Below, piece by piece: positions 6,153 to 61,977 of a stretch of 64,000 bases of DNA. Under the pieces are notes generated by a model. The model searched no databases and was not told the origin of the DNA. It saw nothing but the letters and a program-made list of their open reading frames with translations. Made by a program: the position numbers and the translations under genes. The stretch covers positions 107,136,001 through 107,200,000 of the forward strand of contig OZ024741.1 in NCBI GenBank assembly GCA_964016885.1, in the 5' to 3' direction. The stretch's first letter is position 1. Each line of letters starts with the position of its first letter. This stretch comes from Eledone cirrhosa. Its lineage: Eukaryota.

Positions 6153-6217
6153 ATTTTGTCTGAAGAGGGATTACCATATTTTTAATAAGATATCCCTGAA
6201 ATATATATAATGAAATA
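6152..6217 (+). ncRNA. Minimal type I hammerhead ribozyme (family C element 6150-6347)
   Basis: tattttgt CTGAAGA gggat..atccc t GAAA tatata TA^ atgaaata; 8-bp stem I including G-U pairs. Confidence 0.75.
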
Positions 6218-11510: not shown

Positions 11511-11614
<104 letters not shown>

Positions 11615-11815
11615 TATGTACGCGTACATACATATATGTATACAGACGTGCAGTAGTATGTATATATACATACATACATGCACACATATATATATGTACG
11701 TATGGATTCACCGAACATTTATTATAATGCTCGGTGTGTTTGTAAACAAACATCCCGTATTAAGCCGTAGTGTCCAGCAACCATCGTTGCTCGTTTGTTC
11801 AACACTGACAAAGTA

Positions 11816-11858
11816 ACGCTGTACTAGTTTCAAGCTTATTAGCTATCGTCAGCAACGT
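11816..11858 (-). ncRNA. Minimal type I hammerhead ribozyme
   Basis: acgttg CTGACGA t agct aata agct t GAAA ctag TA^ cagcgt; palindromic stem III ACTAGT. Confidence 0.85.
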
Positions 11859-12216
11859 ATACCTTCCTGCCAGATTGTTGAACGTATATACTTACCTTAT
11901 GCATATTAACGGCTGAGTAGCCCAATTTGCATATCCAGTGGGTTAATCGGCCGGGTGCACCGAAAACGATAAACGGAAAAAATGAAACGAAATTTCATTT
12001 CCCACTCTTAATACGGCTGTTACTTAAATATAAGTATGTACACGTACATACATATATGTATACAGACGTACAGTAGTATGTATATATATATACATAAATG
12101 CACACATATATATATGTACATATGGATTCACCGAACATTTATTATAATGCTCGGTGTGTTTGTAAACAAACATCCCGTATTAAGCTGTTGCTCGTTTGTT
12201 CAACACTGACAAAGGA

Positions 12217-12259
12217 ACGCTGTACTAGTTTCAAGCTTATAAGCTATCGTCAGCAACGT
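12217..12259 (-). ncRNA. Minimal type I hammerhead ribozyme (second tandem copy)
   Basis: Same as 11816-11858 with a stem II loop change. Confidence 0.85.
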
Positions 12260-12439
12260 ATACCTTCCTGCCAGATTGTTGAACGTATATACTTACCTTA
12301 TGCATATTAACGACTGAGTAGCCCAATTTGCATATCGGCCGGGTGCACCGAAAACGATATATAAGTAATTATATTTAAGTAATAGCCGTACTAAGAGTGA
12401 GAAATGAAATTTCGTTTCATTTTTTCCATTTATATATAT

Positions 12440-14523: not shown

Positions 14524-14526
<3 letters not shown>

Positions 14527-14720
14527 AACTAGTAAGACCCCGACAGCTGAGCTCAAGCCGTTTCGACGGCTAATTCTGGATAGGTCCAGAATTAGCCGTC
14601 GAAACGGCTTGAGCTCAGCTGTCGGGGTCTTACTAGTTCCTATTACCCACTCTACTACCTCAAGTATTGAGTACTTTGGTGCGTTATGGTCCACCTGGTT
14701 CCTTACCACATTTCCTTCGT
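14524..14720. mobile_element. Asymmetric fold-back element, family A
   Basis: Perfect arms 14524-14580 and 14585-14641 around loop tagg; about 80-nt tail ending ttccttcgt(TA)n. Confidence 0.85.
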
Positions 14721-20570: not shown

Positions 20571-20965
20571 AATATATTAATAAATGGAAACTATATTTAT
20601 AAAACCATAATTATTTTAGATAAAATACAGATTTATTTTATAAATAAATATTGACATACCCGGAAAAAAAGGCAACCTCAACGGTTGAAATTCGGTGGAT
20701 AGTCTATCCAGCGAATTTCAACCGTTGAGGTTGCCTTTTTTTCCGGGTATGTCAATATTTATTTATAAAATAAATCTGTATTTTATCTGATGAAAGCGCA
20801 CCATAATTTACCTTGGTCGCCCTTGAAATATATATAATAAAATAATTATGGGTTTATAAATATAGTTTCCATTTATTAATATATTGTATATTTACTCCAC
20901 TAATTTGTTGAGTGCTTTATATCAGTTATAAAAATGTTTAAGCTTGTTGAATTAAATATAACCTC

Positions 20966-20968
<3 letters not shown>
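20571..20968. mobile_element. Asymmetric fold-back element, family C
   Basis: Apex at about 20703; left arm lacks the ribozyme core; tail 20890-20968 with ttgagtgct. Confidence 0.85.
20779..20844 (+). ncRNA. Minimal type I hammerhead ribozyme
   Basis: tattttat CTGATGA aagcgcacca..tggtcgccctt GAAA tatata TA^ ataaaata; perfect 8-bp stem I; predicted cut after 20836. Confidence 0.88.
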
Positions 20969-21029
<61 letters not shown>

Positions 21030-28413: not shown

Positions 28414-28695
28414 TATCCCGGGTTCAATCGGGGGTAACCACAGTAAGTAAGGCACTCAAAATATACCAGAGTATAAATATTTAATATAGAATAGAAATGG
28501 CTTCTACAGGACTAGAGCTGATTCATTCGGGAGAACTCATCAGGAAGCCGGGTTAAGAGGGGCACAGTAAAGTGGTAAAATATATGTTTATCCCGGGATC
28601 AGTCGGAGGTAACCACAGTGAGTAAGGTACTCAAGGACTTCCTGATGATTTCTCCCGAATGAAACAGCTCTAGTCCTGTAGAAGCCATTTCTATA
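28411..28695. mobile_element. Family B fold-back with an extra tail copy captured in the spacer
   Basis: Arms 28491-28547 and 28638-28693; ggact tc CTGATGA tttctcccgaat GAAA cagc tc tagtcc at 28635-28676; tail duplicate at 28586-28634. Confidence 0.8.
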
Positions 28696-29309
28696 ATACA
28701 CTCTGTATAGCTCTACACCTCGACACTGAAGTGAACCTAAACATCGAGTGCTCACCCGGGTGAATCTACAGTAACTCCAAGTTACACTCCCTGGATATAT
28801 ATATATATGATGTGAGAAAGACTACAAACCCTCCATCTCAATTGTACTTTTAAAAAGCATAAGAACTGTGAAACCGGTAAAAGAGACAAATAAATATTCT
28901 TAAAAAGACTCCAGTTGCATTTTCGATTTCTTTTCCTTATACATATATATATGTATATACGTATTGTATATGCTGGTGGTTTGGTGCGTATGTGCATAAA
29001 TATGCATGTAAATATTTGCCCACATGTCTGTATATATATATATCTATGGCATCGACAACTTAGACTCAAAGCCAATATTACAGACATATTCCACAATGCT
29101 TCAAGCAAACTTCAATACTCTCATATATATATATGTCGGATTTTGCACTTTTCTAATGCTGCTCACACACACTCCAACGCCACCATCAACGCCGCCATCA
29201 CCACCACCCACATGACCACCACCATTAAACAAATCTATCTTTGATATTAAGATTGTAGGTGTGAGTCATAGCAGCAGGCATAAGGCAGCACTTATTACGA
29301 TCGTCATCT

Positions 29310-31821: not shown

Positions 31822-32256
31822 TACAATATATTAACAAATGGAAACTATATTTATAAAACCATATTTATTTCATTATACATATTTCAAGGACACCAAAGCC
31901 AATTATGGTGCGCTTTCATCAGATAAAATATAATATAGATCAGTTTTATAAACAAATATTGACATACCCTTAAAGAATGCAACCATGTCGGTTGGAAGCT
32001 CCCGACATGGTCGCATTCTTTAAGGGTATGTCAATATTTGTTTATAAAACTGATCTATATTATATTTTATCTGATGAAAGCGCACCATAATTGGCTTTGG
32101 TGTCCTTGAAATATGTATAATGAAATAAATATGGTTTTATAAATATAGTTTCCATTTGTTAATATATTGTATTTTTACTCCAATAATTTGTTGAGTGCTT
32201 TATATCAGTTATAAAAATATTTGCTTGTTGTATCCCAACAAATTAAATATAACTTC

Positions 32257-32260
<4 letters not shown>
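31822..32260. mobile_element. Family C fold-back with about 170-bp near-perfect arms and two hammerheads
   Basis: Hammerheads at 31866-31930 (-) and 32063-32127 (+); apex about 31997; tail to 32260. Confidence 0.9.
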
Positions 32261-32300
<40 letters not shown>

Positions 32301-37325: not shown

Positions 37326-37433
37326 GTGTGTGTGTGTGCGTGTGCGAAAGGCAAACAGAAATAAGAAAGCAAACGACTCAGTACAATGAAGAAATATATT
37401 ATTAGTTTTACGCTGGGTATAGTACGAAAAGGG

Positions 37434-37469
37434 TCTTTACGTTTCGGATGCTAGTCCCTCATCAGAAAA
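37434..37469 (-). ncRNA. Minimal hammerhead ribozyme (family D relative)
   Basis: tttt CTGATGA gggactagcatcc GAAA cg TA^ aaga. Confidence 0.75.
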
Positions 37470-37879
37470 TAGAATCAGAAATTAAAGAAGTAATAGAAAG
37501 ATAGTGAGGAGCGGGCAGTGGCAGAAACGAAAATGAATTTCTTTGAGAAAATAACACGTCTATTCATGTCGCCATCTCTTGGAAAACTGTTGATTCCCCC
37601 TTGTTGTATAAGAAAACCAGTTAGTTTTGTTTTAAAGGGCTGTGATCTAATTGATAGGAAAGAAAATTGTTTTGTATATAAAGCGTATGCGTGTGCGTGC
37701 GTGTGTTTGTCATTTGTCCATACGAAGCCAAGATGATATGTGTATATAATATATATATATATAAATATATTTCGAGGGCGGCCGACTGAGGTAGAAGCTG
37801 CTAAATGGTCGGTCGTCCTCTTGTCTCTGATTTTCAGCCCCATGGATTGTATCTGTTATATTCCTTTGTTATATTTTGA

Positions 37880-40019: not shown

Positions 40020-40110
40020 ATGTAAAAGGTGTAAACAGAAATAACAACACAATCGGTACAGTATATGGAATGTATATATTAGGTTAACGCTTGACATAGC
40101 AGGAAGAGGG

Positions 40111-40146
40111 TCTTAACGTTTCGGACGCTAGTCCTTCTTCAGAAGA
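40111..40146 (-). ncRNA. Minimal hammerhead ribozyme (family D element about 40020-40290)
   Basis: tctt CTGAAGA a ggac tagc gtcc GAAA cg TT^ aaga; palindrome AACGTT. Confidence 0.8.
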
Positions 40147-40377
40147 AATAATGAGAAATAAAAAAGATTGAGGGGACGGGCGGGATGGAATTGGAAAAAA
40201 TATCTTTAGATAAAAATAACAGGTCCATTCATGTTGACATCTCTTGCAAAACTGTCGGTGCTAACGTTTTGTGTATGATTTGTTTTTTAGAAAAGTAGAT
40301 GATGGAGCACGTCTACCTGAAATGGAAAAAAAAAACGTTTTGTAAAAAGTGCTCTACCCGAGCACGTGCGTAAGCAT

Positions 40378-40492
<115 letters not shown>

Positions 40493-40501
40493 TGTGTGTG
40501 C

Positions 40502-40583
<82 letters not shown>

Positions 40584-40705
40584 ATAGGTCCGTACGAAGC
40601 TAAGAAGAGATATGTGTATATGTGAGTAAAAGAGTGTGTGTGCATGTAAGTACGAAGCTATGAGCAAAGAGAAAGCGATAGGAATCCAGGGGTGAGGTAA
40701 TGGAC

Positions 40706-40751
<46 letters not shown>

Positions 40752-40753
<2 letters not shown>

Positions 40754-41262
40754 TAGAAAGGGCATTTGTTGGAAGTCCGACAAATATAAATGTTTATAAC
40801 TGATTTAGAGCACTCAACTGGTTACTGGAGTAAATATTCAATGATATTAAATAAATGGAAACTATATTTATAAAATCATATTTATTTTATTATATATATT
40901 TCAAGGGTACCAAGACAACATTGGTACGCTTTCATCAGATGAAATACAAAGTTTGTTTTATAAATAGAGATATACCCATGAAAATCATACCTTATCGGTT
41001 GGAAATTCACTCCACTATCCAGTGAATTTCTAACCGATAAGGTATGATTTTCATGGGTATATCTCTATTTATAAAACAAACTTTGTATTTCATCTGATGA
41101 AAGCGTACCAATGTTGTCTTGGTACCCTTGAAATATATATAATAAAATAAATATGGTTTTATAAATATAGTTTCCATTTATTAATATATTGTATATTTAC
41201 TCCACTAATTTGTTGAGTGCTTTATATCAGTTATAAAAATGTTTAAGCTTGTTGAATTAAAG
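40752..41262. mobile_element. Family C fold-back with two different tails and two hammerheads
   Basis: Hammerheads at 40883-40946 (-) and 41086-41149 (+); apex about 41016. Confidence 0.88.
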
Positions 41263-41582
41263 GTTGCGTTCGTGCAGTGGTGGTGTGTGTGTAGATGGAG
41301 TGCACATTACCATCTGTTTGCGCGTGTGTGGGTATTAAGTGTGTTGTTGGTATAGGTGTGTGTTCGTACATATGTGTGAGCGAGTGTATGCTGGTATGTG
41401 TGGCAGAGATGTGTGGTTGTTGGTGAGTATTCCCTGGTTGCATGTATAGGTCTATCCGTGTGCGTTTGTGTGTGTGTATTGTGTGGTTTCATGGATAGGT
41501 GTATGCGTATGCGCGTGTGCGTGTGTGTGTGCGTGTGTGTAAGTAGTGGGGTGGGCTTTTGAGTCTAGATGGGTAAAATCCA

Positions 41583-49180: not shown

Positions 49181-49182
<2 letters not shown>

Positions 49183-49380
49183 CGAAGGAAATGTGGTAAG
49201 GAACCAGGTGGACCATAACTCACCAAAGTACTCAATACTTGAGGTAGTAGAGTGGGTAATAGGAACCAGTAAGACCCCGACAGCTGAGCTCAAGCCGTTT
49301 CGACGGCTAATTCTGGCTAATTCGAGTCCAGAATTAGCCGTCGAAACGGCTTGAGCTCAGCTGTCGGGGTCTTACTGGTT

Positions 49381-49383
<3 letters not shown>
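49181..49383. mobile_element. Asymmetric fold-back element, family A (tail on the left)
   Basis: Arms about 49259-49316 and 49328-49385. Confidence 0.85.
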
Positions 49384-57143: not shown

Positions 57144-57146
<3 letters not shown>

Positions 57147-57340
57147 AACGAGTAGGACCCCGACAGCTGAGCTCAAGCCGTTTCGACGGATAATTCTGGA
57201 CTCGGTCCAGAATTAACCGTCGAAGCGGCTTGAGCTCAGCCGTCGGGGTACTACTCGTTCCTATTACCCACTCTACTACCCTAAGTATTGAGTACTTTGG
57301 TGCGTTATGGTCCATCTGGTTCCTTACCACATTTCCTTCG

Positions 57341-57342
<2 letters not shown>
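57144..57342. mobile_element. Family A fold-back (tail on the right)
   Basis: Same layout as 14524-14720; loop ctcgg. Confidence 0.85.
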
Positions 57343-57872: not shown

Positions 57873-58057
57873 ACGAAGGAAATGTGGTAAGGAACCAGGT
57901 GGACCATAACCCACCAGAGTACTCAATACTTAGGGTAGTAGAGTGGGTAATAGGAACGAGTAGGACCCCTACGGCTGAGCTCAAGCCGTTTCGACGGCTA
58001 ATTCAGAATTAGCCGTCGAAACGGCTTGAGCTCAGCCGTCGGGGTCCTACTCGTTCC

Positions 58058-58114: not shown

Positions 58115-59085
<971 letters not shown>

Positions 59086-60751: not shown

Positions 60752-61001
60752 CAAAATGTTAAAGGAATATTATATGAAGCTACATGCATGCAGCCTTTGC
60801 TCAGTGGTTAAGAAGTTCACATAACGTTTTTACAAGAGTCACATGTTGAACAAAGCCTTGCGATTGAGATTTGCGATATTATTATATGAGGGGACTTCTT
60901 TAACGAATGTAGACCGTTGTGATGTTTCAAGCAATGTTACCATTGTGGTGCTTTAAACGACAAAACAATGTCCAAGCATATTGTGTGTTGCAACGGGTAT
61001 A

Positions 61002-61900
61002 CGAGGTGGGTCAGAAAAGTTCCAGGACTGATGTCACAAAAGATTTATTTTAAACCCAAACTTCACACTAAGAGTTTTCTCCTTCAAAGTAATCACCCTG
61101 GAGTATGTAACTGTAAGCTTAGCTCTCTGAAGCGATCAAACTTTTTCCTTCATAATTTTATATACATGTCCTCTGTTTCAGGTCGTCAAGCAATGAACAC
61201 AGACCAACGAACAAATTTGAAAACTCCATCAGAAGCACTGGCATTGCTACAGCAAGTGTATGGAGATGAGACGATGTCACGCTCACGTGCTTTTGAGTGG
61301 TGCAAGAGGTTTAAAGAAGGACGCGAGGACGTGGAAGATGACTCCAGGAGCGGAAGGCCCTCAACAACCAGGACTGAGGTCAACGTTGAGCGCGTCAGGC
61401 AGATGGTGCGCAGCGATCGTCGGCTGACTGTTCGACTGATGGCAAATGAGCTGGACATGAATCGGGACAGCGACTGGAAGATTCTCACTGAAGATTTGGA
61501 CATGCGGAAAGTCTGCGCGAAGATGGTGCCAAAACTGCTGAACGATGACCAGAAGTGTCGACGCATGCAAGTGTTCCAGGACATTCTCGAGCGTCTTGAA
61601 ACCGAACCAGACTTGCTAGGGACAGTCATCACCGGTGATGAGTCATGGATCTTCGAGTACGACTCGGATCGGAGGGGAACCATTTTGAAGACGTGGGCGA
61701 CATCAAAAAGGCCGTGACGACGGAACTGCGGAGGATCCTGGAAGAATCCTTCCAGGAGTGCATGCAAGCGTGGCAGAAAAGGATGGAAAGTGCATTAGAC
61801 TCCAGGGGATTACTTTGAAGGAGAAAGCTTTTAGTGGGAAGTTTGGGTTTGAAATAAATCTTTTGTGACATCAGTCCTGGAACTTTTCTGACCCACCTCG
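61002..61900 (+). mobile_element. Internally deleted mariner element with about 103-bp inverted ends and TA TSD
   Basis: TA-cgaggtgggtcagaaaagttccaggactg ... cagtcctggaacttttctgacccacctcg-TA. Confidence 0.95.
61220..61833 (+). pseudogene. Mariner transposase remnant (HTH domains, first catalytic Asp, C-terminus)
   Basis: VYGDETMSRSRAFEWCKRFKEGREDVEDDSRSGRP...KVCAKMVPKLL...ITGDESWIFEYD, then a jump to FEDVGDIKKAVT...GDYFEG in other frames. Confidence 0.92.
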
Positions 61901-61977
61901 TATAGCATCAGAAATTGAAACATAATGGAAGTAGACTTCCTTTCGTCCGATCTGACGATTGGTTCTTTTTCACATAC

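Follow-up and report, generated by a model that had tools for sequence, protein, structure and literature searches.

A two-subfamily mosaic arm in a probable inverted Penelope-type insertion of Eledone cirrhosa and its position relative to a predicted hammerhead cut

Does the change of subfamily along one arm of a short inverted repeat in the genome of Eledone cirrhosa record a template jump at a ribozyme cut, or can it be accounted for in other ways? The repeat lies at 40752–41261 of the 64,000 nt stretch of DNA analysed here and called the window (GenBank assembly GCA_964016885.1, contig OZ024741.1, positions 107,136,001 to 107,200,000 of the forward strand), which is AT-rich, rich in microsatellites and contains many short repeats. 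A preliminary description had interpreted the repeat as the fossil of a jump between the RNAs of two subfamilies at the site where a hammerhead ribozyme cuts. The analysis found a real mosaic of two subfamilies within an otherwise ordinary inverted Penelope-type insertion.

The inverted repeat is 510 nt long, is centred at 41016 and has near-identical inner arms. Its long left arm (40752–41010, − strand) belongs to one subfamily, Y, throughout, reaches about 139 nt past the predicted cut and ends, as do other long arms, in a (TA)n run (40710–40751) that is presumed from the sequence to be the target. The apex loop (41011–41021) is at the same element position as the apex of a related hairpin at 20.7 kb. 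The right arm (+ strand) begins with an inner part (41022–41124) that is a copy of the left arm with one private change at 41031, continues through an interval that holds the subfamily switch (41125–41181; three ambiguous sites at 41151, 41156 and 41157) and ends with an outer part (41182–41261) of a second subfamily, X, identical to a copy at 20.8 kb. The last approximately 13 nt of the tail of that copy are lacking, and the arm adjoins a flank that is not (TA)n; a (TA)n or AT-rich target is thus found at the left end and at other copies of the family, and not at 41262. No target-site duplication is visible at this hairpin, the left end of which is microsatellite. As DNA the hairpin folds at −211.7 kcal/mol (z −35), which none of 100 shuffled sequences equalled, and the 510 nt contain no open reading frame with reverse transcriptase and GIY-YIG endonuclease. 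The hairpin is likely a short Penelope-type insertion. The left flank, at 40033–40650 (− strand), is formed by an older element from a different hammerhead family, with its core at 40142 and a relative at 37353–37747; the hairpin may be nested in this element.

Each intact arm of the family carries a hammerhead-type core that is read outward from the apex. The core of the right arm, found by motif scan and fold at 41094–41141 (+ strand), has its predicted cut after 41141, as the preliminary description had placed it, and the motif scan found it mirrored in the left arm at 40938–40891 (− strand; predicted cut between 40891 and 40890). Core boxes, helix II, a palindromic helix III region and helix I were all found by the scan; helix II is present in the folds, and helix I appears in the best fold of the 32-kb copy only (1 of 5). 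The G10.1-C11.1 pair is missing, an A-U pair adjoining the core instead, both arms of the 41-kb hairpin have a C-A mismatch in helix I, and their best fold is an inactive one. Among Rfam matches none reached the gathering score for a hammerhead and none of the 23 weak ones was named as a hammerhead family; the weak matches reflect the long hairpin. The cut after 41141 is a prediction, since its assignment rests on the motif and on features given in the accessible part of PMC4209133, and the G10.1-C11.1 pair is missing. With the minimal type I hammerheads of metazoan Penelope-like elements (PLEs) described in that part of the paper, the cores share the CUGANGA and GAAA boxes, the long helix II and the short palindromic helix III region, and they differ in the missing G10.1-C11.1 pair, in the C-A mismatch of helix I in both arms and in that cleavage is predicted only.

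The family is represented in the window by eight arms, which form three hairpins (centres near 20703, 31996 and 41016) and two single copies (near 6200 and 15150). The hairpin at 20.7 kb has a long arm at 20704–20969 (+ strand), the 20.8-kb copy, of which 20853–20956 equals 41158–41261, and a short arm at 20574–20702 (− strand) that ends in (TA)n at +55, counted from the predicted cut. The third hairpin (31824–32261), a control, has a long right arm and a short left arm that ends at +53 in a TA run. No mosaic was seen in either of these two hairpins. Inner parts vary more than outer parts among the copies, those at 20 and 32 kb being 19% apart in the former and 7–9% in the latter. The sequencing runs show that the copy number of the family is very high. 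Pattern scans for further copies gave no hits in viral contigs, none and then 12 loci in metagenome contigs, and three loci in genome contigs; the 15 loci from metagenome and genome contigs were dropped as chance, the match extending over only 20–41 nt around the pattern.

The mosaic was tested by pairwise distances and by a triplet test on the eight arms. Along the right arm the triplet columns run as 39 of left-arm type (Y), one X, one Y and then 25 X, and the maximum chi-square of 62 was equalled in none of 20,000 permutations. Beyond the cut, 41151 and 41157 are the only positions at which the right arm departs from the 20.8-kb long arm, with no difference over 41158–41261, whereas the inner parts of the same two arms are 23% apart (28 substitutions and 5 gaps in 123). 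These two arms also have in common an insertion of 2 nt and a gap of 10 nt near 41255, neither of which is present in the copies at 32, 15 and 6 kb. The left arm is 16–26% distant from all other long-tailed copies past the cut and 24–32% distant from other loci before it, and run X1 has 31 contigs in which the outer, Y-type sequence of this arm forms a loose end. Because the distance of the left arm from the other copies is even before and past the cut, and because contigs contain its outer sequence again, the right arm is the mosaic one; the same distances and the 31 contigs rule out a left arm that is itself a chimera or a decayed copy. On sequence grounds Y is a real subfamily. The preliminary description was in these respects correct: up to 41155 the arms have a single mismatch outside the apex loop (41001/41031), where about one difference from apex to cut had been stated, the outer and not the inner part of the right arm matches the 20.8-kb copy nearly exactly, and the hairpin is a chimera of two subfamilies.

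In the right arm, firm Y sites extend to 41124 and firm X sites begin at 41182. The breakpoint interval, 41125–41181, is 57 nt wide (24% of the arm), contains the cut and contains the two longest blocks of identity between Y and X (26 and approximately 25 nt). The arms had been described as diverging strongly from about 41156 outward, which was not confirmed: they agree again over 41157–41181, and strong divergence begins at +41, that is, at 41182. Position 41156 is a lone mismatch, and at the rate of the inner arms 40 nt would contain one mismatch with a probability of 27%. At 41151 the right arm agrees with the left arm and not with the 20.7-kb hairpin, both arms of which carry a different letter; at 41156 the right arm is X-like, with the letter of all other copies that cover the site; 41157 is a private change in the 20.8-kb long arm. 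From the per-run count of G>A places, less than 3% of the contig depth at 41156 would carry the left-arm letter, a figure that is indecisive because Y-type depth is only about 1.3–1.4% of core depth. A simple model that takes the letter of the donor at 41151 as an assumption gave likelihood ratios of 0.16–1.6 for a breakpoint exactly at the cut against one uniform in the interval (1.56 if the donor was without the 41151 letter, 0.16 if it almost surely carried it), and under the uniform model the block containing the cut holds 8–72% of the posterior, depending on the donor. This is a single event in a 57-nt interval, and a tie to the cut therefore cannot be shown. Of the proposed jump between subfamilies at the cleavage site, the chimerism is supported and the tie to the cut is not. 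The switch probably maps near the cut because the two subfamilies are most alike there, and a switch driven by homology would map there.

Arm ends were compared in the three hairpins of the family and in nine of the 22 other inverted repeats of the window, in which a hammerhead-like cut was assigned by eye; the other 13 were left out, no cut site being assignable. The arms match through the assigned cut in all 12 hairpins and part at +13 to +55 (at +20 in three hairpins of family B), and in none of these 12 hammerhead-type hairpins of the window does the point of parting fall within 10 nt of it. In 10 of the 12, the shorter arm passes from there into a microsatellite, in one case into a (CT)n run through a shared TCT. 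Since the other hairpins also part at +13 to +55 without any chimera, parting just past the cut is the normal layout, and the peculiarity of the 41-kb hairpin is that its short arm continues in X sequence. Depth, letters and loose ends were obtained from four of nine sequencing runs over 41000–41300; the 40 of 93 letter entries covered include neither 41151 nor 41156. Among 24 of the 743 loose-end entries, loose ends into (TA)n are found at 41179, 41187 and 41196 and none at 41141/2, and raw-read depth rises by only 2.3–2.4% across the cut.

Further arm ends were noted in the same survey. The hairpins of family B (14525–14720, 49182–49382, 57145–57341 and 57873–58057) have a short arm that ends at the same base in four of four and a long arm that runs about 80 nt further, and their apex lies just before a GAAAC box, possibly inside helix II. 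A second short arm, at 28695–28795, runs on from +19 into approximately 100 nt of non-microsatellite sequence without a match in the window and then into a TA run; the centre of that hairpin holds an inverted piece of tail. The short arm of the 20.7-kb hairpin is missing exactly one core length, 50 nt, at the joint 20619/20618 (− strand) and resumes 1–2 nt past the predicted cut, the long arm keeping its core. This deletion is a sharper candidate for a cut-linked event than the mosaic at 41 kb; it separates no models, because identical ends would be expected if a polymerase skipped over the base of helix I.

The origin of the inner right arm is indicated by rare letters at 41061 and 41091, which make up about 0.4% of contig depth (the other letter 99.6%) and are present in both arms, which also start from one apex; family-B pairs likewise share locus-specific letters between their arms. 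The simplest reading is that the second arm was copied from the first by fold-back and grew outward. As alternatives, two reverse transcriptions of the RNA of one locus would also give shared rare letters, and later homogenisation is a further source of them. A strand that grows outward does not meet the 5′ end of an RNA. For the outer part, the 20.8-kb copy is a candidate donor, in the same orientation and 20.3 kb away. A neighbour as donor is suggested because the rare gap type occurs twice within 21 kb in the same orientation; the type with the 10-nt gap was bounded at approximately 0.6–1.7% of long-tailed depth in the four runs, a rough figure in that summed depth is not copy number. Against a neighbouring donor, even 1% amounts to many copies when the family is very large, and without a local donor the chance that 104 nt show no difference would still be 24%. 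If the 20.8-kb copy was the donor, the switch took place at least 10 nt past the cut, since both arms of its hairpin differ at 41151.

Several explanations of the mosaic were weighed, and the confidence given to each is our own judgement. The one that we favour, tentatively and at somewhat below an even chance, is a fold-back copy of the left arm followed by a switch to an X template through 25–57 nt of near-identity, the upstream 20.8-kb copy possibly being that template. Reverse transcription primed at the left (TA)n would have made the long Y arm, through the core; the new strand would have folded back at the apex and copied itself outward; near the usual end of the short arm (+38 to +55), or during repair of the palindrome, it would have annealed to an X template, copied 80–135 nt of it and been attached to the flank at 41261/2 with no (TA)n run between them. 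None of these steps would require the ribozyme cut. The explanation is built on one event only.

Copying between the arms would equally explain the shared rare letters if a young X arm was already resident at the site and its inner part was replaced, from the apex to the conserved block, by a Y insertion or, as in the alternative named in the preliminary description, by conversion from the left arm. Neither the mosaic nor the interval would then look any different, and nested insertion at (TA)n is common in the window. We consider this overwriting unlikely: two insertions at one site and the loss of the old inner part would be required, and the X part has neither a normal end nor a (TA)n run. 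That the breakpoint arose elsewhere, in an old recombinant subfamily with Y inside and X outside from which the right arm was drawn, would agree with the greater divergence of inner than of outer parts (19% against 7–9%), as exchange of modules would give; yet the inner right arm has the rare letters of the left arm and therefore comes from the same template as a pure Y arm, which leaves little room for such a source. Only a little more room is left for an artefact of assembly or haplotype that fused two copies within the block they share. None of the listed contigs extends over the whole stretch, and inverted Penelope structures are known to trouble assemblies, as the accessible part of PMC8557442 states, but the X segment enters a unique flank that differs from that of the 20.8-kb copy, this right flank is covered at low, flat depth (X1 8.6, X2 6.1), and the two other hairpins of the family are without a mosaic.

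The explanations that make use of the cut are also doubtful. The switch would fall at the cut, which does lie in the interval, if reverse transcription had begun on an X RNA at about +120, had proceeded as far as the 5′ end left by the ribozyme and had then moved, by a template jump, to the 3′ end of a Y RNA; 41156 is X-like, the likelihood ratio reaches 1.56 with a donor without the 41151 letter, and the deletion in the 20.7-kb short arm ends within 1–2 nt of the cut. Of the mechanism invoked for PLEs in the preliminary description, internal initiation has indeed been demonstrated, at two sites, for the Anolis Poseidon element PAc, in which both strands are extended; a template jump is not shown in the accessible part of that study (PMC11167929). 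There, the uncleaved RNA is the main template and cleavage is dispensable in vitro. Position 41151 is left-arm-like; +120, the supposed start, is not where copies usually end; the two rare letters and the stop point of the left arm would have had to recur in the Y RNA; the core without G10.1-C11.1 folds best in an inactive form; and the cut is marked by neither a clear step in depth nor, among 24 of the 743 loose-end entries, a loose end. A jump at the cut is, on this evidence, improbable. In a combined explanation, a second reverse transcription was primed by the right target end on cleaved X RNA; its cDNA would have ended at the 5′ end left by the ribozyme and would then have paired, along the first 40 nt beyond the cut, with the Y strand made by fold-back. 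This is compatible with an inner arm copied by fold-back and with a breakpoint anywhere between +1 and +40; nicking and extension of both strands are described for the Anolis protein in the same part of PMC11167929, and the ends of short arms are stereotyped (family B, four of four at one base). These ends follow microhomology with the target, including the (CT)n case, cleavage is only predicted and there is no direct sign of the second priming; taken as a whole, this combination seems quite improbable to us.

Structures of this kind are already known, and the single breakpoint is uninformative. Endonuclease-bearing PLEs with an inverted, 5′-truncated pLTR, as treated in the accessible parts of PMC8557442 and PMC3846280, are alike in the head-to-head copy, the palindrome at the junction, the shorter arm, the extension at one end, the (TA)n target and joining by microhomology. 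The first of these sources already describes the adjoining inverted 5′-truncated copy, the one-sided tail and (TA)n targets, and in the second, self-priming is put forward as the origin of head-to-head Penelope palindromes and template jumps as that of other inserts. A head-to-head, inverted 5′-truncated copy with a palindrome at the junction was found in the 41-kb hairpin, and extension at one end only is present in the long and short arms at 20.7 and 32.0 kb, where it is longer than the printed 30–40 bp. The insertion at 41 kb differs from those PLEs in having no ORF, in being 510 nt as a whole and in an extension of about 85 nt and not 30–40, and an arm that is a mosaic of two subfamilies is not described for them in the accessible parts. 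Pairs of hammerhead motifs on opposite strands, 100–700 bp apart, had already been noted in Schistosoma (PMC4209133, accessible part). With the Anolis PAc element of PMC11167929, as far as its accessible part describes it, the copies share ends downstream of the ribozyme, two ends that bound the tail, and AT-rich targets. The animal non-LTR retrozymes (bioRxiv 10.64898/2026.07.22.740005, accessible part) are likewise short, non-coding and pLTR-related with a type I hammerhead, but are defined by tandem ribozyme-bearing units, whereas the copies of this family are inverted pairs or singles. A search by titles and the openings of abstracts, outside which most of the subscription literature lay, gave no report of a subfamily mosaic at a ribozyme cut.

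The locus touches on two open questions, to judge from the accessible parts of PMC8557442 and PMC11167929: how the second arm of PLEs is built, and whether template RNA is cut by the hammerhead in vivo. A single mosaic arm is too little to decide either. That the cleaved RNA serves as a template in vivo, reverse transcription of the second arm stopping at the ribozyme-made 5′ end and then jumping or annealing to the fold-back strand, is in our judgement rather unlikely; if it were true, both the mosaic arm and the core-precise 50-nt deletion of the 20.7-kb short arm would be relics of this step, and the very many hairpins of the genome would allow a statistical readout of the Penelope second-strand mechanism. 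With the stereotyped layout of long and short arm in four families of the window and the high copy number, a genome-wide map of breakpoints would be a direct test.

Some other features of the window were recorded. The 9-letter motif TGAGTRCTY occurs at 17 sites, among them 14668, 20909, 32192, 40808, 41214 and 57289, against 1.16 expected (none of 100 shuffles), and spans repeat families that are otherwise dissimilar, copies of the same family not being independent. In a slightly looser form it has 25 sites, 22 of which lie 21–95 nt before a microsatellite, and it is a candidate for a protein-binding or initiation signal near the end of the long arm. A partial tandem of a further hammerhead family is located at 11613–12430 (− strand), with cores at 12253 and 11852, units that are 85% alike and a short inverted piece. 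At 60998–61904 there is a Mariner-type element with terminal inverted repeats of 107 nt and a frame that matches the HTH of Mos1 transposase (PF17906). Finally, a frame at 58369–58950 (− strand) has a weak zf-RVT match (PF13966), just under the cut-off, and is likely the remnant of a LINE.
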